Of a DNA stretch of 64,000 nucleotides, positions 19,532 to 49,646 are shown piece by piece. The DNA comes from Fidelibacterota bacterium UBA7301 (lineage in GTDB: Bacteria > Fidelibacterota > Marinisomatia > Marinisomatales > TCS55): positions 59,807-123,806 of the forward strand of contig DKQT01000018.1 of NCBI GenBank assembly GCA_002471845.1, in the 5' to 3' direction. Numbering within the stretch: position 1 is the stretch's first letter; the number at the start of each line of letters is the position of its first letter. The position numbers and the translations under genes are program-made. Under the pieces are notes generated by a model. It ran no database searches and was not told the origin of the DNA. It saw nothing but the letters and a program-made list of their open reading frames with translations.

Positions 19532-21145
19532 ATGATTCGTCGTACCATTACAGCCATATTATTAGTAGGACTTGCTCTCGGCCAACCTGAACTAAGATTC
19601 CACCCCTTTGACTGGGTACAATACCGTCAGACTGGCAAAGTGAATTCAATTTCTTTCGGAGACCGTTACGCTTACATCGGTACGCAATCCGGCGGTGTAC
19701 TGCGTTTTAACAGGTATTCAGAAAGATTTGAAGCACCCATCACCCGCGCCCAGGGATTACGAAGCAATACAATCACAGCTGTTCACCGGTCTTCAAATGG
19801 TATATTGTGGGCCGCATCTCCACTGGGGGTTGAATTCAGTTTTACTGAAGAAGGTGACTGGCGTTTTATAGATCGGTATCAATTAAATCTTCCTTTGGGT
19901 ATTTTTGTGGAAAGAATCGGTGAATCAGATAACAATGTTTGGCTGGATACCCCGGGATTGATCTATAAACTGGACGCTATAACCGGAATTGTTGTGGGTA
20001 TAATGCCTAATCCGGATGAAGCAGTTACATGGAGTTCGGGACTAATTCGCTTTCGTCAAGATCTTTCTGATTTATTCATTGATTATTCTTTCATGGACGG
20101 CTGGATGACGGACCTCCAATCATTGATTCATCCAGATGGTCGTCAAATGAATGTTACAACGTTAATAAAAAATAATTTTAATGAAGTTTGGATCGGTACA
20201 GAGGACGGTACATTTTTCCGGGGTGACAATACGATGAAAACGTTTACCCCTTTCCGATTCAGCCTGGCGGGGAATGATATCCAAGCCATCCGTGGTAATG
20301 ATTCATTCTGGCTGGGGGGACGGCTGGGGCATTACCAATCGGGAATTTCTTATTTTGATATTGATCGGCATATTGCTGATGAATATTTATTCAGTGAAGT
20401 GATTAATATGGATCAAACATCTATTTTTTCAATTATTGAATTGAAAAAGGAAGTTTGGTTTGGCAGCGAGGATGCACTCCTGGTGTATGAGAAAAAAAAG
20501 GACTTATGGAGAACTTATGGCTTGCAAATCGGGGGAAGAAAGAGTTGGGCTAATACAATGCTGAAAGTTGAAGACCATGTTTGGATTGGGAGTCCCAACG
20601 GTATTTCAATCTTGAAAATAGACGATAAAAAGCCTATCAATTCAAAGGTAGAGAAATACTTCAGAAATATTTTTATTTATGATTTAGCCTTAGCCCAAAA
20701 CCAGGTGTGGATCGGAACGGAAACGGGTTTATTCTTATATGACATTGAGAAAGATATAATCAGGAATTATCGTCAATACGGATATGAAAACAAGGATGTT
20801 ATTTTCCCGATCAGGATTACTGAGTTTACCGCTTTTACCGAGGATAGTAATCAAATTCTGGCTGCCAACCGTACTGGCGTTCTTGCATTTAATTTTCGAG
20901 AAAGGGAATGGTCTAATGCTGTAAATCCATCTATTTTTGGTGGATTGGAAATCAGAGCAATGGCCTTGAAAAAAAATACAGTATTTATTGCGACGGAAAA
21001 TGGAATCATCCAATATGATATGAAAAAAAACCTGGCTGATATGTTTAATTATTCATTTATTGGTCAGGTGAACGACATGTATATTAAGGGTAGAAGATTA
21101 TGGCTGGGAACATCCGAAGGACTGATCTCGTACCGTTACAAGTGA
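19532..21145 (+). CDS. exported beta-propeller protein (two-component-regulator-propeller / Reg_prop-like repeats), no kinase or CTD
   Basis: 537 aa with a signal peptide. At least 8 repeats of the xVWxGTxxGL type (EVWIGTEDGTF, HVWIGSPNGIS, QVWIGTETGLF, RLWLGTSEGLI). Confidence 0.7.
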   Translation: MIRRTITAILLVGLALGQPELRFHPFDWVQYRQTGKVNSISFGDRYAYIGTQSGGVLRFNRYSERFEAPITRAQGLRSNTITAVHRSSNGILWAASPLGVEFSFTEEGDWRFIDRYQLNLPLGIFVERIGESDNNVWLDTPGLIYKLDAITGIVVGIMPNPDEAVTWSSGLIRFRQDLSDLFIDYSFMDGWMTDLQSLIHPDGRQMNVTTLIKNNFNEVWIGTEDGTFFRGDNTMKTFTPFRFSLAGNDIQAIRGNDSFWLGGRLGHYQSGISYFDIDRHIADEYLFSEVINMDQTSIFSIIELKKEVWFGSEDALLVYEKKKDLWRTYGLQIGGRKSWANTMLKVEDHVWIGSPNGISILKIDDKKPINSKVEKYFRNIFIYDLALAQNQVWIGTETGLFLYDIEKDIIRNYRQYGYENKDVIFPIRITEFTAFTEDSNQILAANRTGVLAFNFREREWSNAVNPSIFGGLEIRAMALKKNTVFIATENGIIQYDMKKNLADMFNYSFIGQVNDMYIKGRRLWLGTSEGLISYRYK

Positions 21146-31987: not shown

Positions 31988-33220
31988 ATGAATAAAACAT
32001 TTCTGAACACTGCAATCCGTTTATGTATGATCGGTTTAACTTTCTTTTCAGCCTGCGAAGAAGCAGCTATCCCTGTTGATGGAGATGGTACACCAATGAA
32101 ATTGGACACGATTTCATTTCCTGTTGTTAAAGCAGTATCTTACAGAACACCCCCCGAAATGGGTAATACTGAATATTTATATTTCGGGAAAAAAGATGAT
32201 TATAATTTTAAGTATAACCTGATCAAATTTGATAGCAGTAGCATGACGGCTCAGACGCCTTTTTCATATTATAATGATTCTTTAGTAGTTGTAGACAGTT
32301 TCATGATGTCTTTACGATTTGAAAAAGATTCTATTGAGAATAATAATCCTGAATTTCAATTGCGTTATTTCCCCGACGGAGGCGATTCAGTCTTTAGTGA
32401 GTTCGAATCCAATTATCTCAATTTTGATAATACCATTGCTTCGCCGGTGGTAAGCACGGCCCGCATGGAGGCTGATACAACCGATTCAAACAGTACCAAA
32501 GTATATTTGAACTTTAAGTTGGATACGACAATCCTGAAGGTTTTTAAAGATACAAATGTCACTGATTTTAACCGGTCTTTCCTGGTTGAATTGGCAAGTG
32601 AAGAAACGGAATCGTTCAATTTTATCAGTGTGGACAAAGGTGATGGAAATGGTCCACAATTGACTGTATTCTACCGCCAGTTTTTATCCGATACGGTTGT
32701 TTTGGATACGGCTCAGAGGCTATATAATTCTGTTGGGGATTTATCCATCGTCATACCGCCCGAAGTATCAAATGAAGAAACTTCTTTTTTAGCGGTAGGA
32801 ATGGCTATGGGTTTAAAGTCTATTGTATTGGTTGACATGGGAGGATGGGTACTGCCGCCGAAATCCGTGGTCAGTTCAGCCGAATTAATTTTTCAGCGGG
32901 CTCAAAGTGATACTTTAAAAAACTATAACATAATATCCCATCCTATAATAAATGAAGGGGCCTTTCAATCTTTTTCCTCGTTTGCTGAGGATCCTTATAA
33001 AGAAGAGCATAATTTTTACACTGCATCTCCCGTAGTGAATAATATTTTGAAAATCAACCATCGTAAAGCGGCTACCGAAATCGGACGTGCAAAACTCACT
33101 AATTATGGTTTCAAACTACAAACTTCGATCAGTAATGATCCTTTTACCACTGTGTTATTTCACAGTCTGAATAGTTCTGATTCATACCCGGTTATGAGAG
33201 TGATATATGTTTTACCTTAG
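31988..33220 (+). CDS. lipoprotein of unknown function (position and size reminiscent of DUF4270 partners of short GlgA-like genes)
   Basis: 410 aa with lipobox LTFFSAC and a Ser/Thr/Asn/Asp-rich beta-type sequence. The family call is from recalled synteny only. Confidence 0.45.
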   Translation: MNKTFLNTAIRLCMIGLTFFSACEEAAIPVDGDGTPMKLDTISFPVVKAVSYRTPPEMGNTEYLYFGKKDDYNFKYNLIKFDSSSMTAQTPFSYYNDSLVVVDSFMMSLRFEKDSIENNNPEFQLRYFPDGGDSVFSEFESNYLNFDNTIASPVVSTARMEADTTDSNSTKVYLNFKLDTTILKVFKDTNVTDFNRSFLVELASEETESFNFISVDKGDGNGPQLTVFYRQFLSDTVVLDTAQRLYNSVGDLSIVIPPEVSNEETSFLAVGMAMGLKSIVLVDMGGWVLPPKSVVSSAELIFQRAQSDTLKNYNIISHPIINEGAFQSFSSFAEDPYKEEHNFYTASPVVNNILKINHRKAATEIGRAKLTNYGFKLQTSISNDPFTTVLFHSLNSSDSYPVMRVIYVLP

Positions 33221-34463
33221 AAAAATAATTTTATTATTATTTGTCACTGGGCTCAGTGCCCAATCTATTTTTAATGCCTATGGATTAGGATTATCTAAAA
33301 GTATTTACAATACCTCATCCGCAGGGGCGGGCAGTATCGGACTTGTACCTACATTTCATCCCGGTGTTTCTTTGGATAATCCGGCAACATGGCCGGGATT
33401 AAAGTACACGTTTATCAGTGGTTCTTATGGGAGTCGTTCTGTGGGAACCAATAAGAATAACAGCAAAAATAACGGAAACGGGTTTGAAAAAATTCAGTTT
33501 GTTATTCCCATAAGAGAGCGCTTTGGATTTGGTGTTTCTATTAAACCGGTAAACAACCATAATTCATTTTTTAGAACAGATACATCCACTATTGATTTTC
33601 AGGGAAAACCTATCACTGCGAATAAAGAATTTCGTTCGGGCGGCGGTATAATGGCAGGTTCAGTTGGGTTAGCCCTACCGCTGAATAAAAAAATGGGTTT
33701 AGGCCTTTCAATAGACAGATTATTCGGATCCTCACGGGATGAGCATTCAATGGTATTAAATTCAATATCCTACCGGTTATTTAACATCCGCACATATAAC
33801 GGTTCAACCTTCAACCTAGACTTTGCAGGGCAGTTTTTTAAAAATGATAAAATGATGGTTTTGGGATTTGCCAGAATCAGTGTCAGCGGAAAGCCGGTGT
33901 CAGGAACTTTGTACCAATTTGATTTATTCGAAGATAAAAATGATAATTATGTTTTTGATTCAGGGGATTTTCCTTCAACCGTAAGCGTGGACACAAATAA
34001 GGTGTCTGACATTTATGCACCAAACAGTTTTAGTTTTGGTTTGAATGTAGGATTCAAGAATGATTTAAATGTATTCGGCGAGTTCCAAATGTGGAATGAC
34101 GAAGCGTTAAATGCAGACTATGCCAGTATCTATATGGATCAAATAGGTTCAAAAACACATATCGGTGGGGGACTGGTCAGGTTCGGTAATATGGGCGCCC
34201 GATCCTGGCAGGATAAAATAACATTTCGTGCAGGTGCTTTTAGGGAATCTTATAGTTTGAAGTACAGTGGAAAAACCATAAATGAGAATGGCTTATCTAT
34301 AGGGTTTGGATTTAAATTCGCCGCCACCGGAAATCAGTTAGATTTCTCTTATCGGACTGGATCCAGATCAATTGATGGGGGTTATAAAGAATTAATGCAA
34401 GATTTTACAATAGGAGTGAGTCTGGGAGATGTATGGTTTCTCAGAAGGAGAGGAAAACAATGA
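33207..34463 (+). CDS. predicted outer-membrane beta-barrel protein (weak PorV/PorQ/FadL-like N-terminal NPA motif)
   Basis: 418 aa with signal peptide LLFVTGLSAQ, alternating beta-strand pattern with Gly/aromatic girdles, and SAGAGSIGL..LDNPATW near the N-terminus. Confidence 0.5.
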   Translation: MFYLRKIILLLFVTGLSAQSIFNAYGLGLSKSIYNTSSAGAGSIGLVPTFHPGVSLDNPATWPGLKYTFISGSYGSRSVGTNKNNSKNNGNGFEKIQFVIPIRERFGFGVSIKPVNNHNSFFRTDTSTIDFQGKPITANKEFRSGGGIMAGSVGLALPLNKKMGLGLSIDRLFGSSRDEHSMVLNSISYRLFNIRTYNGSTFNLDFAGQFFKNDKMMVLGFARISVSGKPVSGTLYQFDLFEDKNDNYVFDSGDFPSTVSVDTNKVSDIYAPNSFSFGLNVGFKNDLNVFGEFQMWNDEALNADYASIYMDQIGSKTHIGGGLVRFGNMGARSWQDKITFRAGAFRESYSLKYSGKTINENGLSIGFGFKFAATGNQLDFSYRTGSRSIDGGYKELMQDFTIGVSLGDVWFLRRRGKQ

Positions 34464-35728: not shown

Positions 35729-37048
35729 GTGGCCTCTGGCAAAGGGGCGTTTACCTTTTTAAAAAACGCCGATTCTAAACTATATGAAATCTTAATGCGG
35801 GAAGTCTCCAGGGAAGACTATACCCTGGAACTGATTGCCTCAGAAAATTTTGTCAGTTATCCAATCCTGGAAATGGCTGGCGGCGTCATGACTAATAAAT
35901 ACGCTGAGGGGTATCCAGGGGCACGTTATTACGGCGGATGCGAACACGTGGATGAAGCTGAGAATTTGGCCCGGGACCGCGCCAAACAGTTATTCAATTG
36001 CGAATATGTCAATGTGCAGCCCCATTCCGGTTCCCAGGCGAATATGGCTGCCTTAATGACTTTTATCAAGGTAGGTGATACAATTATGGGATTGGACCTG
36101 GCCCACGGCGGTCACTTAACCCACGGCAGTCCGGTGAACTTTTCCGGGAAACTGTATAACGTCGTTTCGTATCAAGTGAGTCGGGAAACCGGCCGCGTTG
36201 ATTTTACGGAAGTCCGTAAACTAGCCAAAGAACATAAGCCTAAACTGGTCATTTGCGGAGGCAGCGCCTATCCCCGCCATATTGAATTTGAACAGTTTCG
36301 TGAAATTGCCGATGAAATCGGCGCTTTCCTCATGGCGGATATTGCCCATCCTGCTGGACTCGTGGCTACTGGACTTCATCCATCGCCCATGCCCTATTGT
36401 GATGTGGTTACGACTACCACCCATAAAACATTGCGCGGACCCCGGGGCGGAATGATAATGATGGGTAAGGATGTGGAAAACCCCTGGGGTGTGGTTGCGC
36501 CTAAATCAGGGCGGACAAAAATGGTGTCTGAATTACTAAATTCAACGGTGATGCCGGGTATCCAGGGCGGACCTCTGATGCACATTATTGCCGCCAAAGC
36601 GGTTGCTTTCGGTGAAGCATTGGAACCGAAATTCAAATTGTATACCCAGGAGGTCGTCAATAATGCCCAAGCCATGGCTGATGCTTTGTTAAGCAAAGAT
36701 TATCAGTTGGTTTCCGGCGGCACGGATACTCATGTTATACTGATTGATCTGACTAATAAAGATGTGACCGGAAAAGCAGCGGAAAAAGCGCTGGAAAAAG
36801 CCGGCATTACGGTGAACAAAAACATGGTACCCTTTGATCAGCGCAGTCCCTTTATAACCAGTGGCATGCGTGTGGGGACACCTGCAATTACTACCCGCGG
36901 CATGGGCAAAGACGAAATGAATCGAATTGTTGATCTCATTGATGATGTTGTGGCAGATGTGGAAAACGCGGCTACCATCAAACGCGTAAAAGCGGAAGTA
37001 AAAGTCCTTTGTGAATCTTTCCCGTTATATCAGGAACTGCACAATTAA
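35729..37048 (+). CDS. glyA: serine hydroxymethyltransferase
   Basis: [20 protein letters not shown] and the PLP site [14 protein letters not shown]. Confidence 0.95.
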
Positions 37049-37919
37049 GATTTCACACCAGTCCCCGCATCCTCTCTCCAAATTTTTTACTAGTCTAATC
37101 CTGTTTGCAGGAATAGCTTGTAGCCCGGCTGTTGTTGTTTTAGAACATAAGCCGGAACTGGCAAAAAGTACTTACCGCTATTTCGCAGACCGCTCTGAAA
37201 AGCTGATTGCCATATCTCCAGAAAATCCTGAACGGTTGATCGACGGTTGTGAAACCCTGACGAAATATGCCTTCGGTTTCACCATGGAAGAAGCGGATCG
37301 TTTGGTGATGGAGGACTATAAAGGAGGGAAGTTACTACACGAAAAAGCCAACCAAACTTTTGCCAAGGCCGTTGCTTACGGTGATCGTGCACTAAGCATA
37401 AAATATCCCACTTATTATGACTGGCTTTTGGGGAGGGTGGTGGCTATGCCGGAATTCGATCCAGCTGATACACCTTATTTATTTTGGACTGCCGGTGCTT
37501 ATGGTGGTGCCATTAAATCCAGCGGAGGAAATCCAGAGTGGGTGATCCTGTTGCCAAGGGTTGGCCGTTTGCTTGAGGCGGGCCTGTCAGTGGATCCCAA
37601 TTGGAATAAGGGTGCTTTATACAGTGCCATGATATCCTATACCATTAGTCGGCATGACGCTCCAAAAAATAAAGCAGAAATTGCCCGGGATTATTTTGAA
37701 AAAGCGGTAAAATCATCCAATGGGCAGGATTTAGGTCCGTACGTAACAATGGCCGAAAGTGTCTCCATAGCAACCCAAAACAAGAACGAATTCACTAATT
37801 TGTTATATAAAGCATTAAATATTGATATAAAGGCTGACCCTGATTTACGTTTGACGAATCATATCAACCGAAATCGGGCTCAATGGCTCCTGGATAACAT
37901 TGACGAATTCTTTTATTAA
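37011..37919 (+). CDS. TRAP transporter TatT-component family TPR lipoprotein
   Basis: Lipobox LFAGIAC and a helical TPR-like body. The C-terminal [29 protein letters not shown] pattern matches the TatT family. The start is uncertain: the GTG at 37011 overlaps glyA by 38 nt. Confidence 0.6.
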
Positions 37920-37931
37920 AGCATAATTCCC

Positions 37932-38921
37932 ATGAAGCGACTCACCACAATATTATTAATCTGTTTATCTGTCCAAGTATTATGGGCTAAAAAAATTGTT
38001 GTCAAAATGGCCACTTTGGCTCCCGAGGGGACTGAATGGCACGGCATCCTAGTGGACTTAGGTCAGCAGTGGAAAGCGGCTACGGACGGTGAAGTTCGGT
38101 TGCGAATTTATCCCGGTGGCGTTGTAGGCGATGAACCGGACATGATCCGTAAAATGCGAATCGGTCAAATCCACGGTGCTGCAATTACCAATGAGGGAAT
38201 GACAGAACTTAATCCATATTTCAGCGCATTTTATATGCCTATGCTGTATCAATCCTATGATGAAGTTGATTTTGTCCGCGCCCGGCTGAATAATGATTTA
38301 ATATCTGTAACGGAAAAGAATGGATTTAAAATATTAACAATGGTTGATGTGGGATGGGCTTACTGGTTTACAACCAAACCGGTGTACACGCCTAAAGACC
38401 TGAAAGAAACAAAAATTTTTATCTGGGCCGGGGATTACCAATCTACCAAACTTTATGAAAACCATGGATACCAACCTGTGCCTTTGGCCATGACAGATGT
38501 ACTGTCCGGTCTGCAAACTGGATTAATCAATTCTCTCGGGTTTAATCCCATGTACGCCTTATCCCAGCAAATATTCGGGATAGCTGATAATATGCTCGAC
38601 ATGAAATGGGGTAACCTAACCGCCGCTATTGTGATTGATATGAGAACCTGGAAGCGCATAAAGCCGGATCACCAAAAGGCCATGCTTAGAATTGCTCAAA
38701 ATATCGGTAATAAATTTCAGGAGAAAAACAGGCATGAAACAGACAAGGCGGTAGAAGTGATGAAACAATACGGTCTGAAAGTGAACACGCCGACCGTGGA
38801 ACAGGTGGAAGAATGGAAGGAACTCATTAAACAGATGTATCCCGATATCAGGGGAACACTCATTGATGAAAAGGCATTTGACAAATTGATGGAAATCAAA
38901 AAAGAAATGGAATCCCGTTAA
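37932..38921 (+). CDS. dctP: TRAP transporter substrate-binding protein (DctP family)
   Basis: 329 aa with a signal peptide and a DctP-like pattern (KMATLAPEGTEWH, RIYPGGVVGDE). Adjacent to a fused DctQM. Confidence 0.8.
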   Translation: MKRLTTILLICLSVQVLWAKKIVVKMATLAPEGTEWHGILVDLGQQWKAATDGEVRLRIYPGGVVGDEPDMIRKMRIGQIHGAAITNEGMTELNPYFSAFYMPMLYQSYDEVDFVRARLNNDLISVTEKNGFKILTMVDVGWAYWFTTKPVYTPKDLKETKIFIWAGDYQSTKLYENHGYQPVPLAMTDVLSGLQTGLINSLGFNPMYALSQQIFGIADNMLDMKWGNLTAAIVIDMRTWKRIKPDHQKAMLRIAQNIGNKFQEKNRHETDKAVEVMKQYGLKVNTPTVEQVEEWKELIKQMYPDIRGTLIDEKAFDKLMEIKKEMESR

Positions 38922-38938
38922 AACGAATTTTTCTTCCC

Positions 38939-40732
38939 TTGGCTTATTTTAACATCAAAACCCTCGAGCAGTATTTTACCCTATTTGTTTTTATTGCTCT
39001 CGTTTTTCTTCCGGCCACGGAAGTAATTACTCGATTATTCGGCACCACTGGCGTGGTCGCTTCTTCGGTTCTGGTACAGCATTTTACTTTATGGATTGGT
39101 TTTGCGGGGGCTGTAATTGCCGCCCGCCGGAACAGGCTTTTATCCCTGACCACAAAACCGCTGTTCGAAACTGAAACCAACATTGATTGGTTCAAATTCA
39201 TCGGCAAGGTGACCACCATATTTATTGTATTGGCCCTGGCTTATGGCAGTTGGGGATTGGTCAAAATGGAAATGGATTATCCGGTGAAGATCGCACCGCT
39301 TCTGCCCAGATGGGGTGCACAAATGATTATGCCCGTGGGATTCATTTTTATCGCAATCCACATGTTTCTGAATGGTTATGACAGTTGGAAAAACAGGGGT
39401 ATCCTTTTTGGTTCTATTATCACAATCATCCTTTTGACTCGGTATGTGGAACCCCTACAGGAATCCCCGTTATTCATGTGGCTGGCAATCCTGCTTATCC
39501 TATTCTCGCTCATCAAGGGAGCGCCTATTTTTATCGGTTTGGGCGGTTTAGCAATCCTCTTTTTTTGGCGGGACTTTATTTCATTATCTGCAATTCCAGC
39601 GGAAGCCTATCGCATCGTTGTTTCGCCCACCTTACCGACAATTCCTTTATTTACTTTAGCAGGATACATATTAGCTGAGAGTAAGGCATCGGAACGGCTT
39701 GTCCGATTATTCAGGGCATTGTTTGGGTGGATACCGGGGGGCACGCCGGTGATACTCGTTCTTCTATGCGGATTTTTCACCGCTTTAACCGGCGGTTCAG
39801 GCGTAACCATCCTGGCCTTGGGCGGATTGCTGTTTCCATTGTTGATCCGGGAAGGATATTCAAAACATTTTTCATTGGGTCTCATCACCGTAGCCGGGTC
39901 ATTGGGATTATTATTTCCCCCGAGTTTACCTTTGATTATTTACGGTGTTACAGCTGCTGTTTCCGTGAAAGCCATATTTTTAGCGGGCATAATACCGGGG
40001 TTTATTCGGGTTGCCATGATTGGGGGATGGGCCGTTTGGCAGGGTAAGGTGCAGTCCGTGAAGCGCCACAGGTTAAACCTGGGTGATATTAAAACGTCCC
40101 TTTGGGATGCGAAGTGGGAAGCGATAATTCCCTTTTTTATTCTATTCGGGATATTCGGCGGATTCACCACTTTGGTAGAAACAGCCGCCATGACCGCCGT
40201 ATATGTCTTTATTGTCGAAGTATTTGTTTATAAGGACTTGAATTGGCGGGATATGAAAAAGATCATCCTGGATTGTTCAACACTTATAGGTGGTGTGCTG
40301 ATCATTCTCGGCGTTGCCATGGGGTTGACCAGCTATTTAGTGGATGCTCAAATTCCCATAAAACTTTTGGCCTGGGTCAAGACCGCCATTTCCTCAAAAA
40401 TAGTATTTCTTTTATTATTGAATCTTTTCCTTTTGGCAGTGGGCTGCATGATGGATATCTTTTCAGCCATCATTATTGTAGTGCCGTTAATCACACCATT
40501 GGGGGTCTATTTCGGAATTGATCCCGTTCATCTGGCGATCATTTTTATTGCCAACCTTGAATTGGGTTTTTTAACACCCCCCGTGGGGATGAATCTCTTT
40601 TTATCTGCCTATCGCTTTGAGGAGGATATGCCCACAATCTATAAATCCACTTTGCCGTTTTTTATGGTCATGCTAGTGAGTGTTTTGGTGATTACATATA
40701 TCCCGATTTTGTCCACTTGGGGGGGAAATTAA
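38939..40732 (+). CDS. TRAP transporter fused small/large permease (DctQ-DctM)
   Basis: 597 aa. About 4 N-terminal TM (DctQ-like) then about 12 TM (DctM-like) with FFTALTGGSGVTI and LELGFLTPPVGMNLF. Confidence 0.85.
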   Translation: MAYFNIKTLEQYFTLFVFIALVFLPATEVITRLFGTTGVVASSVLVQHFTLWIGFAGAVIAARRNRLLSLTTKPLFETETNIDWFKFIGKVTTIFIVLALAYGSWGLVKMEMDYPVKIAPLLPRWGAQMIMPVGFIFIAIHMFLNGYDSWKNRGILFGSIITIILLTRYVEPLQESPLFMWLAILLILFSLIKGAPIFIGLGGLAILFFWRDFISLSAIPAEAYRIVVSPTLPTIPLFTLAGYILAESKASERLVRLFRALFGWIPGGTPVILVLLCGFFTALTGGSGVTILALGGLLFPLLIREGYSKHFSLGLITVAGSLGLLFPPSLPLIIYGVTAAVSVKAIFLAGIIPGFIRVAMIGGWAVWQGKVQSVKRHRLNLGDIKTSLWDAKWEAIIPFFILFGIFGGFTTLVETAAMTAVYVFIVEVFVYKDLNWRDMKKIILDCSTLIGGVLIILGVAMGLTSYLVDAQIPIKLLAWVKTAISSKIVFLLLLNLFLLAVGCMMDIFSAIIIVVPLITPLGVYFGIDPVHLAIIFIANLELGFLTPPVGMNLFLSAYRFEEDMPTIYKSTLPFFMVMLVSVLVITYIPILSTWGGN

Positions 40733-40898: not shown

Positions 40899-42260
40899 AT
40901 GAAACGGATATATTCAATTGTGGCGGCGCTTCTGCTCCTGAGCAATCCGTCCCTCAATGCACAAAGTGAAGCAGGTGCGATATTTCTGCTCATATCGCCC
41001 GGTGCCCGTGCCGGCGGGATGGGTGAGGCACAGGTGGCTATCGCTAATGATGCCTATGCCAGTTATTGGAATCCTGCGGGATTGGCCTTCCAGGATGGTT
41101 CCGAAATTGCCTTCATGCACGTGAATTGGTTGCCGAATTTAGCCGATGACCTGTACTATGAATTCTTGGGATTCCGAAAACATTACCCGAACCTGGGGAC
41201 GCTGGGTGGTCATTTAATCTACCTCAACCTGGGAGAACAGGTGCGTATGGATGAATTCGCCCAATACCAGGGAAAATTCACTTCCTACATGATGGCAGCA
41301 GCCCTGTCCTACAGTTCTAAATTATCATCCACCTCTTCCTTTGGGATGAATGCCAAAATTTCTTACCAGCATTTGGTTGAAATTGCCACCGGTTCTGAGA
41401 AGGGAAAAGGTACTTCCATTGATTTTGGTTTTGATCTTGGATATATGAATAAAAGCTGGCTAACGCCCCGCATGGATTTGGGTGTAACCATGACCAATAT
41501 CGGGCCGAAAGTTTCTTTTATTGATCCGGACCAGGCCGATCCCCAACCGACAAATTTAACTTTTGGACTGGCTTATGAGGTGATTAGAAATGACTTTAAT
41601 AGTCTGAAGTTGGTCTATGATGTGGACAAACTGTTAGTGGCCTCATACCCGGATATGGATTGGGACGGGGACGGTATGATAGGCGGTTTTAACAAAAATG
41701 GAAAAGAAGGCACAAAAAATTCAGATTATAACCGCAATGGAAAACTGGAAGCAGCCCATAAGGATCCGATCTATAAAGCCATATTTACTTCCTGGGTGGA
41801 TGACTGGCTTCTCGGCGGCGATATTGACAGGGCCATACCTGGTGAGGTTACCGATAAAAAAATCGGCGGTTGGGAATGGGCCGGCGACGCTAACGGAAAT
41901 GAAAAGCTGGACCCTGAAGAAATGATAGACACCGCCAAGGAATACGGCGCTGTTTTCGGTGATGATAACTGGGGCATTTATAATGAGTGGGGCCAAAAAG
42001 AAGTGGGCTCGGCCAAGGATCGTACCATTCAGAATGAACTTGATAAGCTCGTTCACAACTTCGGTATGGAATACTGGTATTCATCCTATTTTGCCCTCCG
42101 CACGGGATACTATTTCGACAAAACGGGTAAGATTCAAAACCCTACCTTTGGTGTAGGATTGCGTTTTTCTAACTACGGATTTGATTTTGGATATACATCT
42201 GGAGCACCCGGTCATCCACTGACCAATACCATGCGGTTCTCCATGAACATTCAGTTATAG
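40899..42260 (+). CDS. porV: PorV/PorQ-family outer-membrane beta-barrel (T9SS shuttle-type) with large internal insertion
   Basis: Signal peptide, then the family-typical AGAIFLLISPGARAGGMGEAQVAIANDAYASYWNPAGLA. Ends in beta strands (MRFSMNIQL). A roughly 140-aa insertion carries DxDxDG-like loops. Confidence 0.75.
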   Translation: MKRIYSIVAALLLLSNPSLNAQSEAGAIFLLISPGARAGGMGEAQVAIANDAYASYWNPAGLAFQDGSEIAFMHVNWLPNLADDLYYEFLGFRKHYPNLGTLGGHLIYLNLGEQVRMDEFAQYQGKFTSYMMAAALSYSSKLSSTSSFGMNAKISYQHLVEIATGSEKGKGTSIDFGFDLGYMNKSWLTPRMDLGVTMTNIGPKVSFIDPDQADPQPTNLTFGLAYEVIRNDFNSLKLVYDVDKLLVASYPDMDWDGDGMIGGFNKNGKEGTKNSDYNRNGKLEAAHKDPIYKAIFTSWVDDWLLGGDIDRAIPGEVTDKKIGGWEWAGDANGNEKLDPEEMIDTAKEYGAVFGDDNWGIYNEWGQKEVGSAKDRTIQNELDKLVHNFGMEYWYSSYFALRTGYYFDKTGKIQNPTFGVGLRFSNYGFDFGYTSGAPGHPLTNTMRFSMNIQL

Positions 42261-42271
42261 ATAAAGGTTAA

Positions 42272-45085
42272 ATGAACCGCTTTCCCAAATGCAGATGGGC
42301 TTTGGCCTTTCTGCTTTTTGCATATTTACCCATGGATGCCCAAGTTCTCGGGGACTTAATAGTGGCTCTCATCCGCGTTTCATTTCCGCCGGGGGATTAT
42401 CCTGGATTTACAGGAAATGGCAATTACGAATATGTTCAAAATGAAGTTTGCGGCGACTATACTATTGATCCTGCTCCCCATGATAAAAACTATTTTCAAT
42501 CCCACCTAGAAGCGGTGAATAATTATTTCCGGAAGGTCTCTTATGGAAAATTCGGGATTGATTTACATAATTCCACCGTATTTCCCATGGAGAATGAGTC
42601 CAGTTATTTAATCAATAAACCCATGAACTATTACCATGAGATTAGTCACGATGAAGTTCATGAAAAACGGATTACTGAATTATTAAGGGATGCGGTTAAT
42701 AAAGCATTTGAAGTCGATAACATTGCTTTCAGTAAATATGACCTTGTTATTGTCGTCCATCCCGGTGTTGGACAGGATTTCAAATTACCATTTCTCGATC
42801 CGACGCCAGAAGATATTCCCTCAACATACGTGGATAATAATATGGTTAACACCCATTTAGGAGGACCGATCCAAGTTGGACGCATGTTCGTCCCCCATGG
42901 TATTATTGTTCCAGAAACGCAGAATCATCTTTTTTACGATGAATCAATATTTAGTCAATTATCTAGCCCTTGTGATGTACAATACAGCCTGACGGGTACC
43001 CTGACTATGATGATTGGCTTTGCCATAGGGTTGCCACCGCTTTGGGACTTAGAAACGGGTCAATCGGGAGTAGCCGTATTTAGTCTTATGGATCAGGGGT
43101 CGAATAATGGTCGCGGGATTATCCCTGCACCACCGGATGCATGGACGCGGATCTTTGCCGGTTGGGAGGAAGCCACAACATTTCAATATCCCGGGAAGAT
43201 TTCTATTCAAAGTGACATGCAAAACAGTATCGCCAAGGTCCCCATCAGCGCCGATGAATATTTTCTGATCGAAAACAGAAATAACTGGTTCCGGAATGGG
43301 GTCAGTATTGATTCGGCTCGCTATGCTGTTTGGGAAAAGGCGAATGAACATCCGCCGTTTATTAATGTAATGATTGATTCAGTTAGAGTAGGAAAGGATG
43401 AAAATGGCGTTATAACCGATATCCCCAATTATGATTTGGGTTTGCCCGCTTCGGGTCTTTTGATCTGGCATATTGATGAACAAAAAATACGAGGTGGGAT
43501 CAATTCATTTTTAATTAATGCTGACCGAAAACATCGTGGTATTGATCTTGAAGAAGCGGATGGTGCCCAGGATATTGGTTATGTATCCAATTTATTGACG
43601 GACCCTTCTTCCGGTTATTGGGGTGATATGTGGTTTACTGAGAATAAAGAATATTTCCGCGCCAATGCTGAGGGGAGTATGGATTTCTCCTCATTCACCT
43701 ATCCCAATACAAAATCCAATTCCGGCGCAAATTCAGGGATCCATATTAGCAATATCTCCAAAGCGGGGAAGATAATGACTTTTAATTTTTCATCCAGTTA
43801 TGATGTGGCCTATTTGAAGGATGAGAATAAATCAATTCTTTTTCAATGGGATGTGGATGGTGATGGTGATTTGGATTTTGTGGGCGAAGGGGATTCGCTT
43901 TGGTGGGGGGATGACCTTAATGAAGTGAATGCATTTAATAAAAATGATGGTGAAAATCTTCAAGTTTGCATTGTTCAAAATTCGAATCCTACAGCGATTG
44001 CCATAGCAAAACGAATGGGTACAGAACAAATTTTTGAGTGGTTTGAGTATGATCCATCTAATAAAAAATTGTTTCTGAAGTGGAAGAATAAAAAAGAGAC
44101 AGTCAACATTTTTAATCTTTTCAAAGCGGAAGCCGATGAGGAAAGAATCATCATCCAGGATGGCACCTCCTTCTACCAGGTTAAAAATGAAAACATTTCA
44201 TCTATCGATCCCAATGAGGAGTTATTTCCCTTAACCGTTTTTGATGGGAGTTGGACCTTTCAAAATGATCAGTATTTCTCTTATGAAAAATTCCCAATTC
44301 TGACAATTCGAGGGATAGAATCCCATTTTGAAAATGTGTCTTTATTAGATTTAGAAAATGACGGCCACGCTGAAATAGTCGTTGTTGACCATGAAGGGAA
44401 TATTCATGCCTTATCTGAAGGATCAATATATAAAAACGGATTTCCAATTTCAGCAATGGCGGTAGGACCTGTGTTAGGTATGGATCTATTGGATGACAGA
44501 AAAAGGGAACTCATATATCAGCATCAGGATGGGACGATTCGAATTTTAGATTTTGAAGGCGCGGAATTAGAAAGAATTGCCACATCTGGGTCATTAAAAG
44601 GATTGAGTAATTATAACGATAAACATGTGATACTGACAGGAAATAATCTCATCTCCTTCAAGGAAAATTGGGATGGGGCTGTTAATGAATGGGCTTATCC
44701 TAATGGAACAGCTGATCGGTCATCATTGTTACTAACTGGAGACTATACACCCCTAATCCCCTTTTTATTAGATCAAGAACAATCCTATGCCTATCCAAAT
44801 CCTTCTTATGGTGAGGATGTCATTTTTAGGATTCATGTTGGAGAAGCTAAAACTATTAATATTAATATTTTTGATTTGGCTGGTTTTCCTGTTGAGACAT
44901 TGAAAAAAGAAACAATTATCTCTCAGCCAACTGGTTCAAATTCTAGATTTTATATTTTGAGAAATTCCATTGAAATACCATGGTCGGTTTCAAATATTAA
45001 CTCAGGTGTATATTTCGCTCGTGTGGTGGTTAAGTTAGGAGGCCAGTCGGAAGAAAAGATCATCAAAGTAGGCGTTATTAAATAA
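42272..45085 (+). CDS. T9SS-sorted M6 (immune inhibitor A)-like protein with all zinc-site residues substituted; FG-GAP-like repeats; C-terminal sorting domain
   Basis: M6-like collinear blocks: LIVALIRVSFPP, YFRKVSYGKF, DLVIVVHPGVGQD, FSLMDQGSNNG, EYFLIENRNN, GLLIWHIDEQ, IDLEEADGAQD. The HExxHxxGxxD position reads MMIGFAIGLPP (43007-43039). FG-GAP-like WDVDGDGDLDF and LENDGHAEIVVVD are present. The last ~100 aa (44783-45082: YAYPNPS...SGVYFARVV...VGVIK) fit a Por_Secre_tail CTD. Confidence 0.7.
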   Translation: MNRFPKCRWALAFLLFAYLPMDAQVLGDLIVALIRVSFPPGDYPGFTGNGNYEYVQNEVCGDYTIDPAPHDKNYFQSHLEAVNNYFRKVSYGKFGIDLHNSTVFPMENESSYLINKPMNYYHEISHDEVHEKRITELLRDAVNKAFEVDNIAFSKYDLVIVVHPGVGQDFKLPFLDPTPEDIPSTYVDNNMVNTHLGGPIQVGRMFVPHGIIVPETQNHLFYDESIFSQLSSPCDVQYSLTGTLTMMIGFAIGLPPLWDLETGQSGVAVFSLMDQGSNNGRGIIPAPPDAWTRIFAGWEEATTFQYPGKISIQSDMQNSIAKVPISADEYFLIENRNNWFRNGVSIDSARYAVWEKANEHPPFINVMIDSVRVGKDENGVITDIPNYDLGLPASGLLIWHIDEQKIRGGINSFLINADRKHRGIDLEEADGAQDIGYVSNLLTDPSSGYWGDMWFTENKEYFRANAEGSMDFSSFTYPNTKSNSGANSGIHISNISKAGKIMTFNFSSSYDVAYLKDENKSILFQWDVDGDGDLDFVGEGDSLWWGDDLNEVNAFNKNDGENLQVCIVQNSNPTAIAIAKRMGTEQIFEWFEYDPSNKKLFLKWKNKKETVNIFNLFKAEADEERIIIQDGTSFYQVKNENISSIDPNEELFPLTVFDGSWTFQNDQYFSYEKFPILTIRGIESHFENVSLLDLENDGHAEIVVVDHEGNIHALSEGSIYKNGFPISAMAVGPVLGMDLLDDRKRELIYQHQDGTIRILDFEGAELERIATSGSLKGLSNYNDKHVILTGNNLISFKENWDGAVNEWAYPNGTADRSSLLLTGDYTPLIPFLLDQEQSYAYPNPSYGEDVIFRIHVGEAKTININIFDLAGFPVETLKKETIISQPTGSNSRFYILRNSIEIPWSVSNINSGVYFARVVVKLGGQSEEKIIKVGVIK

Positions 45086-48015
45086 TGAAACTTCGTTTTA
45101 TTTTATTAGTTTCTTTAGCTTTAGGACAAGTGAGTTATAACCATCCCGAACTGGATTGGAAAACCATAGAGACGGATCATTTTCGGATCCATTTTTATGG
45201 TGAAACCGAACAGTCCGCACTAGAGGGCGCATATGTGGCTGAACGGATCTATCCCTTTGTCACCAACCTCTACCTATACGAACCATTCGATAAGACCGAT
45301 ATTGTCTTCACTGATGTGGATGATATTTCCAACGGCGCCGCCTATTTTTACGATAATAAAATTGTCATCTGGACTAGTCCATTGGATTTTGAATTACGGG
45401 GTTCCCATCGTTGGCTCCAAAATGTGATCACCCATGAATTCACCCATATTGTCTCTATCCAGCGTGCCCAAAAGTTTGGTAAGTCCGTCCCCGGGGGATA
45501 CCTCCAATGGATAGGCTACGAAAAAGAGAAACGGCCAGATGTGCTCTATGGTTACCCTAATACGCTGGTGAGTTATCCCATCCCCGGAACAGTGGTGCCG
45601 CCGTGGCTGGCTGAAGGGGCGGCCCAGTTTATGTATCCCGGGGCGGATTGGGATAACTGGGATTCGGTCCGTGATATGATCTTGCGTGACAGGGTGTTAA
45701 ATAATAATATGCTTTCATGGCGGGAGATGAATACTTTTGGCAAAAGTGGCATCGGAAATGAATCGGTATATAATGCAGGCTTTGCATTAGCTCGATATTT
45801 GGCGGTGAAGTACGGTCCGGAATCCTTAGAAAAGATTATGGCATCTCTGAGTAAGCCCATGAATTATTCCATTAATCGCGCCTTCAAAGATGCTACGGGT
45901 AGAGAAGGAAAACTGGTTTATGATGAGTTTGAAACTGTTTTAAAAACGCGGTATGAAACCCTCACCGAATCGGTCATAGAAAATGAATTGAAAGGCAGAA
46001 TCATCCACGAAAGGGGAACGGTCAATTTTTTTCCTATCTGGAATGAAGACGGCACTAAAATTGCCTATATCTCAAACCAGGATCATGATTATTTCGGCAG
46101 CACCGATTTGTTTATCTATCATTTGGAATCAAAGATTTCTGAGAAGATAATTGACGGAGTTTATTCGAAACCGACTTGGAATGGGAAAAAAATATACTAT
46201 GCAAAGAAAGGTAAAATGCCCAATAAGGTGGGATCTAAGTTTTATGATCTTTATGAATATGACCTTTCGACTCAAAAAGAATTTCGGCTAACGAAGGATG
46301 CGCGGTCATTTTTTCCAGTTTATAGCGCAACGGATAGTGCCTTATTTTATCTTGCAACTCATGATGGAACCCAAAATATTTTCAAGATCGATCTTCAGAC
46401 CAAGTCCACTGAAAAACTGACTGATTTTAATAATCGAGAAATAATTGGTGGACTGAATTATGATGAAGAAAACGACCGCCTTATTTTTGACATGACCACC
46501 CACCATTTTCGAAATATCCATTATTTAAGTTTGGAAGATTCAATATCAGGTACGGTATTAAATAATGAACTGTGGGATGAGCGCCAAAGTGACCATGTAA
46601 AAAATGGAATGGTTTACAGTGACGATCGGTCCGGAATTTTTAATCTGTATTTCATCGGGAAAGATAAACAAGGCTATTTGACCAATGTTTCCGGTGGTGC
46701 CTTCATGGCGGATATCCATGAGAACGGAAAGGTGGTTTATGCCCTTTTTACAAATGGACAGTATAAGCTCGCTATTCTTGATTCTATTCAAATTGCGGAT
46801 GACGCCAATGTGGGGTATACGCCACTGTATTTCCAGCGGAATAAGAACTTGAGTCCGGCCATAACTGAAACGGTTCGTGCTAATCCAAAAAAATATAAAG
46901 ACCATTTTCCACCCATGTTTACCATGCCCCGCATGGCCATGGATTACGGCACCTTCAAACCAGGGATCTATTTTTATTCCTCAGAAATATTGGACAAAGT
47001 AACGGTGACCGGTGGTGCGTCTGTGAACCGATCCAAAGATTTGGACCTGTTCTTTTTATTTGAGTATAAACATTTATTCCCAACACTGTTTTTTGAAACA
47101 TTTTATTTAACACGGAATACCGAGGAGAGCACGGCCTATTCTGTTTATAAATTGGACAATAATCTTAAATTTCGTCTCATTGAATTTCAAGGCGGATTGC
47201 GGATTCCATTTTATGGTACACAGTTTGAATTGTATGGCAGTTGGTCCCAGTACCGGGCATCCATTAAAGAGCAGGTTGTGGGAAAACCCCAGCTTCGATC
47301 AGGTTTTGGATATGATTATTTTAAGGGGACGGAAGCGGGGATCAATTGGAATTTGAGGCAATTTAAACGACGTATCGATCAGGATATCAATCCGGTGGGA
47401 TATGAGGTGGATGTGCAGGTAGGGAAGGAATGGAATCAATTTATTGACGGGCTGGACTTGTCGGAGTCCGGAACATTAATTTCAAAATTTAATAAGCACA
47501 ATTTTGTTCAGTCTGATATCAGGGGAAAATATTTGTGGGAAATTCCAAAGACAAACAGATGGACCGTATCCATTGGAGGACAGGCGGGATGGATATCCAA
47601 TGCGTCTGCCGATTCATTTTTTCACTTTTTCGCCGGCGGTATGCCCGGGCTTAAAGGGTATCCATTCTATTCGTTGGAGGGAACAAACATGGTCATAGGA
47701 GAATTGGGATTACGAATTCCTATATTCAGGGAAAAGCATATTCCAATGGGTTGGTTCACATTGCAGCATTCCACTATTGGTTTGGTGGGACAAATGGGAG
47801 ACGCCTGGAATCGTGATCAATCCAAATTCAGTGCGAAATCCTCCGCAGGTATAGAATTTCGTTTGGCCGGCTATTCATTTTATAATTATCCCACTTCCAT
47901 TGGATTAGAGCTGCACCGAGGCTTAGCTACATTTAAAATGGATATTGGGGATGGTAAAACACTAAAATATGGTGGTGAAAACCGATTTTATTTTACAGTA
48001 TTGTTCGGATTTTGA
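45085..48015 (+). CDS. outer-membrane fusion protein: gluzincin (HExxH+E) domain + TolB/PD40-like beta-propeller + Omp85-type beta-barrel without POTRA
   Basis: Signal peptide; HEFTH at 45433-45447; WLAEGAAQF with the Glu at 45613-45615. PD40-like repeats (FFPIWNEDGTKIAYISNQD, FFPVYSATDSALFYLATHDGTQNIF). Omp85-like FFAGGMPGLKGY (VRGY-type loop-6 motif) and a terminal FYFTVLFGF. Confidence 0.65.
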   Translation: MKLRFILLVSLALGQVSYNHPELDWKTIETDHFRIHFYGETEQSALEGAYVAERIYPFVTNLYLYEPFDKTDIVFTDVDDISNGAAYFYDNKIVIWTSPLDFELRGSHRWLQNVITHEFTHIVSIQRAQKFGKSVPGGYLQWIGYEKEKRPDVLYGYPNTLVSYPIPGTVVPPWLAEGAAQFMYPGADWDNWDSVRDMILRDRVLNNNMLSWREMNTFGKSGIGNESVYNAGFALARYLAVKYGPESLEKIMASLSKPMNYSINRAFKDATGREGKLVYDEFETVLKTRYETLTESVIENELKGRIIHERGTVNFFPIWNEDGTKIAYISNQDHDYFGSTDLFIYHLESKISEKIIDGVYSKPTWNGKKIYYAKKGKMPNKVGSKFYDLYEYDLSTQKEFRLTKDARSFFPVYSATDSALFYLATHDGTQNIFKIDLQTKSTEKLTDFNNREIIGGLNYDEENDRLIFDMTTHHFRNIHYLSLEDSISGTVLNNELWDERQSDHVKNGMVYSDDRSGIFNLYFIGKDKQGYLTNVSGGAFMADIHENGKVVYALFTNGQYKLAILDSIQIADDANVGYTPLYFQRNKNLSPAITETVRANPKKYKDHFPPMFTMPRMAMDYGTFKPGIYFYSSEILDKVTVTGGASVNRSKDLDLFFLFEYKHLFPTLFFETFYLTRNTEESTAYSVYKLDNNLKFRLIEFQGGLRIPFYGTQFELYGSWSQYRASIKEQVVGKPQLRSGFGYDYFKGTEAGINWNLRQFKRRIDQDINPVGYEVDVQVGKEWNQFIDGLDLSESGTLISKFNKHNFVQSDIRGKYLWEIPKTNRWTVSIGGQAGWISNASADSFFHFFAGGMPGLKGYPFYSLEGTNMVIGELGLRIPIFREKHIPMGWFTLQHSTIGLVGQMGDAWNRDQSKFSAKSSAGIEFRLAGYSFYNYPTSIGLELHRGLATFKMDIGDGKTLKYGGENRFYFTVLFGF

Positions 48016-48016
48016 T

Positions 48017-48844
48017 ATGAAAAGATTTGCACCAGCAATTTTCATATTATCGGTTGGGTTTTCCCAATTCAACCACTACGATTTAGCCAACTATCCTGTT
48101 CAGCGGGATACGATTGGTCTGCCTGGTCCAGCCAAGGCTATGTTTAAATCATTCATCGTTCCGGGGTGGGGACAGATTCAAAATAAGGATTCATGGTGGA
48201 AGCCCCTTTTATTTGCCGGCGTTGAAACAGTGGGTTTGTTATCATCTTTTAATTATGGCAGGCGTGCTGAAAATATACGTCGGGATTTTGAATCCTATGG
48301 TGATGAACATTGGGCCTTGGCGCGATGGTATTCAAATACACAAAGAATATTTCCTAACCAATGGCGGGAAATACTGATCGGCACTCATAAATTGGAACTG
48401 AAGATCGGCAGTAATTATTACCATACGAACCAATTGGGTGAACTGGTTAAGCAATATGCATGGTCCGAAATCACTGTAATCCGGGATCGGGATTTTTATG
48501 AAAATATTGGTAAGTATGATCAGTTTGTGGGGGGCTGGGATGATGATTATGACGATCCATTTGATGCGGCAGGGAATTGGTTTACGGTGAAAAAAGGTGA
48601 TGTGGAATCTATTATTTTAACCAAACGAAAAGATTATTACCGCGATCTCCGCCACGAAAGTAATTTATTGAAACATTATTCCCGTTATGCCGTAACGGTG
48701 GTGATGTTTAACCATCTTACCAGTGGATTGGAAGCAGGGTGGTCGGCAAAGAAAAAGGTAAAAAATTCCTCCGAATTCAGCTTGAATTACAATCCAATGA
48801 ATAAGTGGGGAGTTGGGGGTGTACGAATCACCTTTACGTGGTAA
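48017..48844 (+). CDS. DUF5683-like membrane-associated protein
   Basis: Signal-like N-terminus, then the FIVPGWGQIQNKDSWWKPLLFAG motif typical of the family (recalled). Confidence 0.55.
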   Translation: MKRFAPAIFILSVGFSQFNHYDLANYPVQRDTIGLPGPAKAMFKSFIVPGWGQIQNKDSWWKPLLFAGVETVGLLSSFNYGRRAENIRRDFESYGDEHWALARWYSNTQRIFPNQWREILIGTHKLELKIGSNYYHTNQLGELVKQYAWSEITVIRDRDFYENIGKYDQFVGGWDDDYDDPFDAAGNWFTVKKGDVESIILTKRKDYYRDLRHESNLLKHYSRYAVTVVMFNHLTSGLEAGWSAKKKVKNSSEFSLNYNPMNKWGVGGVRITFTW

Positions 48845-48881
48845 ATTCCCCGCTCAAAAATTGATAGAAAGAAGCCAGTTA

Positions 48882-49646
48882 ATGCGTGTAGCAGCAGCTA
48901 TTTTATTGTGTACGGCATTGATAATATCAGGATGTGCCGGAAATAAATCCATTCAAGATATTGACTATAATGCAGAATTTGAAAAGGGAAAAACTGCATT
49001 AGCGAAAAAGAAATATACTAAAGCACAATCCCTGTTTAATAATGTGGTCATTGGCGCCTCCCATACAGAACTGGGAGATGATGCGCTGTTTTTTCTGGGG
49101 GAATCATATTATTTTTCCAAGGAGTATTTATTGGCGATTGCGGAATATGATCGCTTGATCCGACGTATGCCCTTTAGTCCATTTGTTGAGCAGTCACGAT
49201 ACCGAATATGTGAGGCTTACGTCCTTTTATCCCCCAAATATTTCCAGGACCAGACCTATTCTGAAAAAGCGCTGGGGAAACTCCAGGAATTCATAGATGA
49301 TTATCCCAATTCCAAGCACCAGGAAAAAATGCAGGCTGATATTAAAAAATTGAGAAATAAATTATCCCATAAATCATACGAATCTGCTGTTCTTTACATA
49401 AAGATGGAAGAATATAAAGCAGCCCTATTGGCTTTGCAGCAAGTGACGGACTTATATTATGATACAGATTATATTGACCAGGCCCATTTAAAAAAAATTG
49501 AATGCTATATTCATCGCGGTGAGATGGATAAGGCGCAGGAATATTTTGATGCGAAACGAAAACATATTGAAAACCTAAAGTTGGCTGATTTTGTTGAAAA
49601 ATGGTTTGACCAGGGTCGAGTTTTAAGCCAGATTGAAGTCGAATGA
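48882..49646 (+). CDS. bamD: outer membrane protein assembly factor BamD (YfiO)
   Basis: Lipobox LIISGC and BamD-type TPRs (FEKGKTALAKKKYTKAQSLF, ALFFLGESYYFSKEYLLAIAEYDRLI, YPNSKH). Confidence 0.8.
   Translation: MRVAAAILLCTALIISGCAGNKSIQDIDYNAEFEKGKTALAKKKYTKAQSLFNNVVIGASHTELGDDALFFLGESYYFSKEYLLAIAEYDRLIRRMPFSPFVEQSRYRICEAYVLLSPKYFQDQTYSEKALGKLQEFIDDYPNSKHQEKMQADIKKLRNKLSHKSYESAVLYIKMEEYKAALLALQQVTDLYYDTDYIDQAHLKKIECYIHRGEMDKAQEYFDAKRKHIENLKLADFVEKWFDQGRVLSQIEVE

Follow-up and report, generated by a model that had tools for sequence, protein, structure and literature searches.

A probable pseudoenzyme of the M6 metalloprotease family encoded between porV and an intact peptidase gene in Marinimicrobia

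Type IX secretion system (T9SS) biology has been learned almost wholly from Bacteroidia (Porphyromonas, Flavobacterium). In Porphyromonas, PorU is held on PorV, and PorZ on PorQ, by way of their C-terminal sorting domains (CTDs). A second point of reference is NCBIfam NF052323 (T9SSA_dep_M6i), the "T9SS-dependent M6-like inactivated metalloprotease," and a third is MEROPS family M6, the thuringilysins, represented among solved structures by InhA2 (4yu5, 4yu6). Here, we describe a gene that touches on all 3 in the Marinimicrobia (SAR406; Marinisomatota in GTDB, now Fidelibacterota), abundant ocean bacteria for which we know of no genetic system. The DNA analyzed, called the window throughout, is a stretch of 64,000 nucleotides (nt) on contig DKQT01000018.1 of Fidelibacterota bacterium UBA7301, whose genome measures 1.87 Mb and is about 96% complete. 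The gene, M6i, encodes a protein of 937 amino acids (aa) that is very probably a catalytically dead homologue of the M6 metzincins and a divergent Marinimicrobia orthologue of NF052323. It lies between porV and the gene of an intact peptidase. The most likely reading, to which we give a probability of roughly 40% to 50%, is that M6i acts as a PorV-docked, non-catalytic partner of this adjacent peptidase.

A dead M6-like protein of the T9SS is an already curated concept, embodied in NF052323; M6i is a new sub-threshold member, and its novelty is lower than had been assumed in an earlier interpretation of the same DNA (the sequence-only reading). What is added here is conservation across the whole phylum Marinisomatota, a 4-gene cassette that crosses phyla, co-loss with an intact peptidase, and the finding that constraint is greatest in the dead domain. 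A search of the literature found no paper on the NF052323 family, on the T9SS in Marinimicrobia, or on the function of DUF5683, the family of the fourth cassette gene. With a dead catalytic domain that is more constrained than its other domains, M6i is a clean example of a pseudoenzyme. Given its position beside porV and an intact TolB-propeller peptidase, it is also a concrete candidate for a T9SS accessory or surface-protein-processing module that is as yet unstudied.

Domain architecture and the replaced active site

The features of the gene and its product are as follows, in window coordinates.

42272..45085, + strand: M6i gene, an intact open reading frame of 937 aa for a predicted secreted pseudo-metalloprotease with signal peptide, dead M6 domain, beta-propeller, and T9SS CTD
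42272..42340, + strand: probable Sec signal peptide, residues 1-23 (MNRFPKCRWALAFLLFAYLPMDA, followed by QV), read from the sequence
42341..43816, + strand: M6 (InhA/thuringilysin)-fold domain, residues 24-515, from an AlphaFold2 (AF2) model and TIGR03296
42635..42649, + strand: HEISH, a chance HExxH-like string, residues 122-126, in 1/36 orthologues
43007..43039, + strand: degenerate zinc motif MMIGFAIGLPP replacing HExxHxxGLPD, residues 246-256, on the active-site helix
43079..43102, + strand: Met-turn block FSLMDQGS, retained, residues 270-277, with M273, D274, and G276 invariant
43817..44776, + strand: beta-propeller, FG-GAP-like, the most variable part, residues ~516-835
44792..45067, + strand: T9SS type-A CTD, residues 841-932, from TIGR04183

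The sequence-only reading had proposed that M6i follows the M6 family and that the string MMIGFAIGLPP stands where the zinc motif belongs, with both His ligands, the catalytic Glu, and the Asp all lost at a truly homologous position. The DNA itself bears out the string: nt 43007-43039 run atg atg att ggc ttt gcc ata ggg ttg cca ccg and translate to M-M-I-G-F-A-I-G-L-P-P. Profile alignment, fold matching, and column statistics then agree on the position and on the losses. Thuringilysins are metzincins with Asp as the third ligand (PMC12237041). A structure-matching profile built from 12 diverse N-terminal domains of the M6i family matches only one solved structure, the M6 peptidase InhA2 (4yu5), and the alignment places "...GtlalllGnqlGlpdL" opposite "GVFAHAFGHDLGLPDEY". 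In this alignment, M246 occupies the place of the first His, M247 that of the catalytic Glu, F250 that of the second His, and P256 that of the Asp ligand. The family profile was required for this result; a phmmer search of the PDB with the single M6i sequence returned spurious RecR matches only.

The fold gives the same answer. With 54 orthologues as input, AF2 modeled residues 24-515 with high confidence, at a predicted local distance difference test score (pLDDT) of 87.7 and a predicted template modeling score (pTM) of 0.90. The only significant Foldseek matches of this model in the PDB are 2 InhA2 chains of 4yu6, with E = 4.4e-8 and 2.4e-7 and template modeling (TM) scores of 0.53-0.54. A domain-only model was required here as well, since beta-propeller matches swamp the M6 signal in a fold search with the full-length model. 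In that full-length model (pLDDT 72), a helix at residues 240-251 corresponds to the zincin active-site helix.

Compared with M6/InhA, M6i shares the fold of the catalytic domain (Foldseek E = 4.4e-8) and keeps the Met-turn, HAGxGxE, ENR, WHxD, and ExADG blocks together with the GxxLGLPxL context of the motif. It differs in that its His, His, and Asp zinc ligands and its catalytic Glu are all replaced, in that its catalytic domain is followed by a propeller and a T9SS CTD, and in being found in Gram-negative bacteria of the Fibrobacteres-Chlorobi-Bacteroidetes (FCB) group. The flanking blocks named in the sequence-only reading are present and strongly conserved; in M6i, they read HPGVGQD, FSLMDQGS, LIENR, GLLIWHIDE, and EEADGAQDIG. 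Across the family, LMDQGS, HAGVGxD, ENR, WHID(E), and EEADGAQDIG are near-invariant.

Conservation of the dead motif was followed in a MAFFT alignment of 151 family representatives clustered at <=50% identity, and in a closer set of 36 orthologues. Among the representatives, the column of the catalytic Glu holds M in 62, L in 50, N in 21, and Q in 12, and never E. The first His persists in 7 of them and the second in 19, and 26 retain the Asp. Loss of the canonical site is graded within the family, running from HQxxH through xMxxH to xMxxF; this stepwise decay, together with the lack of Glu in all 151 representatives, argues that the whole family is dead. The distant representatives P0214, P0224, P0228, P0230, P0252, P0256, and P0264 read AHQFGHxLGLPS, with both His kept and Gln in place of the catalytic Glu. 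They look like an intermediate stage of inactivation and, judged by these motifs, might still bind metal.

HEISH, at 42635-42649, had been named as a place to which the family HExxH might map instead. It is ruled out as the true zinc site: it occurs in 1 of the 36 close orthologues, in which the consensus is NELGK, and in 0 of the 151 representatives, and in the AF2 model, it stands before a helix, not within one.

It is very improbable that the M6 scaffold has become a cryptic enzyme, with a new catalytic or metal site drawn from other His, Glu, and Asp residues. The candidates for such a site are residues invariant across phyla: H70, H163, D181, E215, D274, E329, E334, H400, E428, and D434. 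Some of these, however, lie in blocks common to active M6 enzymes, namely HAGxGxE (by the InhA2 alignment) and the Met-turn; ENR, WHxD, and ExADG are likewise M6 blocks, according to the block list of the sequence-only reading and the TIGR03296 match. The invariant residues are most simply ancestral structural features, and the progressive decay of the canonical site is typical of relaxed catalytic constraint.

The N-terminus is hydrophobic with an A-Q junction, and a helix is modeled at residues 4-17 with low pLDDT. Residues ~516-835 form an all-beta propeller in the full-length model, for which the Foldseek matches are propellers and FG-GAP-type proteins; over the same region, the family profile finds the propellers of CRTAC1 and the PHL lectin in the PDB. 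The C-terminus retains a T9SS sorting domain, as the sequence-only reading had stated: TIGR04183 scores 24.9 bits over residues 841-932, against a cut-off of 23, and the family profile matches this beta-sandwich CTD to that of PorU (6za2) with E = 2.2e-7. The Pfam version of the domain reaches 17 bits, under its 27-bit cut-off. Among the families searched, a T9SS is evidenced in the genome by PorU and by members of the PorV/PorQ family. PorU is encoded on another contig (544 bits versus a cut-off of 420), and the idea that M6i stands in for a missing PorU sortase was rejected on that ground.

Family membership, distribution, and constraint

The best NCBIfam match of M6i is NF052323.1, with E = 4.5e-117 and 392.4 bits against an equivalog cut-off of 600 bits. 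The model matches in 2 stretches and leaves its positions 560-782 unmatched. The M6-domain model TIGR03296 matches with E = 2.5e-16, and these 2 results, with the InhA2-only match in the PDB, establish the M6 homology that the sequence-only reading had claimed. M6i resembles NF052323 in its architecture, in which a propeller and a type-A CTD accompany a dead M6-like domain, in the degenerate HExxH column, and in its place on the chromosome, since members above the cut-off also lie between porV and a gluzincin/propeller gene (Melioribacteraceae, 964 bits; KSB1, 644). It differs in a middle domain that is shorter and divergent.

The closest Marinisomatota relatives reach ~560 bits, and the M6i proteins at loci outside the phylum score 480-964 bits, with 6 of 9 passing the cut-off. 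NF052323 proteins of 618-964 bits occupy the same row of porV, M6i, peptidase, and DUF5683. M6i shares this gene row with above-cut-off members and is therefore a positional orthologue despite its sub-threshold score. The practical consequence concerns annotation. The NF052323 cut-off misses every Marinisomatota orthologue tested, and because it is not reached, NCBI names these orthologues "hypothetical" or "T9SS type A sorting domain-containing protein."

M6i is present in a single copy. A search across the genome for another M6-like gene, active or not, found none; for this reason, the possibility that the pseudoenzyme works with an active M6 paralogue from its own genome was rejected. Beyond the genome, 1629 homologues were counted at E <= 1e-3 among the candidates scored, and a search of representatives with residues 1-520 gave 2942 proteins at E <= 1e-3, 493 of them at E <= 1e-30. 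Orthologues occur in at least 4 phylum-level lineages. Within the phylum, M6i is present in 56 of the 61 sampled genomes and in 36 of 38 genera. It is among the most conserved secreted proteins of Marinimicrobia.

Selection was estimated by the Nei-Gojobori method on 4 orthologue pairs of 72-89% identity. The ratio of nonsynonymous to synonymous substitution rates (dN/dS) comes to 0.14-0.18 for the gene as a whole; taken by domain, it is 0.08-0.12 for the dead M6 part and 0.14-0.30 for the propeller. As dN/dS is lowest in the M6 domain, the inactive domain is the most constrained part of the protein. Near-identical metagenome variants (L147-L149) carry 1-4 differences, too few for dN/dS. A selected non-catalytic role, as suggested by the sequence-only reading, appears well supported by these sequence comparisons, because purifying selection is strongest in the dead domain and the gene is near-universal in the phylum. 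The view that M6i is a decaying pseudogene or an annotation artefact draws on the loss of catalytic residues and on nothing more. It is refuted by the intact frame of 937 codons, the large number of homologues, a dN/dS of about 0.15, and the spread of orthologues over lineages, and we give it next to no weight.

The porV-M6i-peptidase-DUF5683 row and the role of M6i

M6i is the second gene of a conserved row.

40899..42260, + strand: porV, more PorV-like than any other of the at least 5 PorV/PorQ paralogues, stopping 11 nt before M6i
45085..48015, + strand: gluzincin/TolB-propeller protein, 976 aa, whose start overlaps the M6i stop by 1 nt (TAATG)
47969..48844, + strand: DUF5683 protein, fourth cassette gene (Pfam PF18935, 37.9 bits versus a cut-off of 26.7)
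48813..49646, + strand: bamD, after the cassette in Marinisomatota only (TIGR03302, 122 bits)

The PorV protein scores 246.8 bits against NF033709 and 189.9 bits against NF033710; its paralogues score at most 85 bits against the latter. All 20 of the diverse Marinisomatota genomes compared show the cassette genes in the same order. The same cassette is found in KSB1, Calditrichia, Melioribacteraceae (Ignavibacteriota), and metagenome-assembled genomes labeled Cytophagia; outside Marinisomatota, 14 of 16 loci have all 4 genes, and the other 2 are cut by a contig end. The flanking genes in other phyla are unrelated, for example, acetyl-CoA carboxylase, and in Melioribacteraceae, the cassette is immediately preceded by a genuine porU (952 bits). 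A scan for promoters and terminators gave sites no commoner than in shuffled sequence.

The 976-aa neighbor carries an intact site. HEFTH at 45433-45447 and a Glu at 45613-45615, within WLAEGAAQF, form the HExxH+E signature of gluzincins, and 16 orthologues from several phyla all keep the corresponding residues H117, E118, H121, and E177. The middle of the protein is a TolB-like propeller (E = 8e-18). The C-terminus, of ~350 aa, is beta-rich and ends ...LFGF, with a terminal Phe; an Omp85/TamA barrel in this region is unsupported by the sequence (TamA E = 0.6). No curated family covers the protein as a whole. Paralogues of ~1000 aa occur in related genomes.

The 5 sampled genomes that lack M6i comprise 3 streamlined genomes of ~1 Mb from one genus and 2 genomes of 4.4 Mb from another. 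All 5 keep PorV-family genes, and in one of the 2 genera, each genome has ~21 PorV paralogues. None of the 5 genomes has a full-length peptidase orthologue; the best match, at 162 bits, covers the propeller only and is a paralogue also held by M6i-positive genomes, where the true orthologue exceeds 1300 bits. M6i thus travels with the peptidase.

Three roles had been suggested in the sequence-only reading: substrate trap, adhesin, and partner of the neighboring active protease. The last gains the most support, because of the TAATG overlap, the synteny in at least 4 phylum-level lineages, the invariant HExxH+E of the neighbor, and the joint absence from 5 genomes; the role itself stays conditional. 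M6i would be exported via the Sec system and then the T9SS, and would stay on the cell surface with its CTD docked to the adjacent PorV barrel, by analogy with PorU-PorV and PorZ-PorQ of Porphyromonas. The zinc-less cleft, the propeller, or both would serve binding and not cutting. M6i may pair stoichiometrically with the intact, translationally coupled metallopeptidase and might, for example, hold or present polypeptide substrates or T9SS cargo.

A broader and more tentative proposal extends this partnership to the whole row. M6i would be the CTD-keeping stoichiometric subunit of an undescribed outer-membrane module composed of PorV, M6i, the gluzincin/TolB-propeller/beta-rich protein, and DUF5683. 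Such a module could form part of the T9SS sorting or surface-processing apparatus in FCB phyla outside the classical Bacteroidia, with the zinc-less metzincin cleft holding a polypeptide for the active peptidase.

Several observations weigh against a dead M6 homologue that serves the peptidase from PorV. On the side of identity, the NF052323 score of 392 is below the cut-off of 600, the TIGR03296 score of 60.4 bits is under its cut-off of 110.8, and a Pfam scan of M6i at E <= 0.1 matched neither Peptidase_M6 nor any other protease family. The invariant H163, E215, D274, E334, H400, E428, and D434 remain in the protein. On the side of the role, we infer the physical complex, the retention of the CTD, and the surface location. 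Within the phylum, synteny extends to serine hydroxymethyltransferase (SHMT), BamD, and NadD as well, so that at this level it may in part be general conservation of gene order. Finally, 2 lineages with T9SS genes lack M6i, which is therefore not essential for secretion.

Some of the same observations would fit a humbler and rather unlikely role, that of ordinary T9SS cargo: a non-catalytic adhesin or binding protein, with propeller and dead cleft binding polymers or particles, in no specific partnership with PorV or the peptidase and in a gene order that is simply that of a conserved envelope operon. The CTD is of type A, as in about 15 other CTD proteins of the genome; the propeller varies in sequence and length, as expected of a ligand-binding surface protein; housekeeping genes are syntenic in the phylum too; and 2 PorV-bearing lineages dispense with M6i. 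An envelope operon does not, however, readily account for an order of porV, M6i, peptidase, and DUF5683 that persists across phyla with wholly different flanks, for the overlapping stop and start codons of M6i and the peptidase, or for the loss of the 2 genes together. Neither does a role in ligand binding by the propeller account for constraint that is greatest in the dead protease domain.

The likeness of M6i to PorU and PorZ of Porphyromonas gingivalis raises a different role. M6i is a large CTD-bearing protein whose gene neighbors that of a PorV-family barrel; it shares with PorZ the combination of a propeller and a CTD; and in Ignavibacteria, it directly follows porU-porV. Outside the CTD, in contrast, searches of Pfam, NCBIfam, and PDB profiles gave no homology to the sortase domain of PorU or the propellers of PorZ. 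Further differences are that a genuine PorU is separately encoded in this genome, that M6i is missing from some genomes with T9SS genes, and that the link of M6i to PorV is known here from gene adjacency. M6i could nevertheless belong to the attachment and sorting machinery as a PorZ-like, CTD-retaining subunit that sits on PorV and serves PorU by handling cargo or the anchoring glycolipid, and not as a partner of the peptidase. The architecture speaks for this, as do the position of the gene directly after the most PorV-like barrel and the single row formed with porU-porV in Melioribacteraceae; moreover, a CTD-bearing PorZ was not identified, a six-frame search of the genome with PF21544 giving no match. 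We nonetheless consider it improbable. The sampled genomes of 2 genera, including the one with ~21 paralogues, keep PorV-family genes without M6i; the M6i propeller has no sequence similarity to PorZ; and at the protein level, a 537-aa propeller elsewhere in the window passes the PorZ_N cut-off, with weak PF21544 matches in relatives. Partnership with the adjacent peptidase remains the preferred reading.

Further observations on PorV-family barrels and neighboring genes

The propeller just mentioned, at 19532-21145, is an exported protein with Reg_prop repeats (41 bits) and a PorZ_N_b_propeller match of 32 bits versus a cut-off of 27. It could be PorZ-related or a cross-match; at 537 aa, it is presumably shorter than PorZ.

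The match of the cassette PorV to its model is split between model positions 3-244 and 245-325, with ~70 codons in between (~41802-42011). The insertion is rich in Asp, Gly, and Asn (DMDWDGDGMIGGFNKNGKEG...), and the protein measures 453 aa versus 300-385 aa for its paralogues. At least 5 further PorV/PorQ-family barrels are encoded in the genome, at C11:6263-7285, C14:30233-31384, C34:32969-33931, C34:32143-33051, and C10:24931-25827 (contig:coordinates). For 2 of these barrels, the gene directly adjoins one for a CTD protein (C14:31419-31700 and C34:33943-34218), an arrangement suggestive of dedicated barrel-cargo pairs.

At the other end of the cassette, there is a 47-nt overlap between the 3' end of the peptidase gene and the DUF5683 gene. 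The latter takes fourth place in the cassette in all phyla checked, and one locus (L130) apparently has 2 copies.

Upstream, at 37011-40732 of the window, are genes for a tetratricopeptide repeat (TPR) protein of the TAtT family (PF16811, 141.6 bits), then for a DctP binding protein, and then for a fused DctQM permease. Together they make up a TPR-protein-associated tripartite ATP-independent periplasmic (TRAP) transporter, which immediately precedes porV; only in the gene order of the window does it stand between SHMT and porV. Farther upstream, a 418-aa protein at 33207-34463 is BamG-like (NCBIfam 130 bits, under a cut-off of 250) and is followed by a TPR protein and SHMT. In most Marinisomatota genomes examined, the trio of BamG-like protein, TPR protein, and SHMT lies ahead of the porV cassette.

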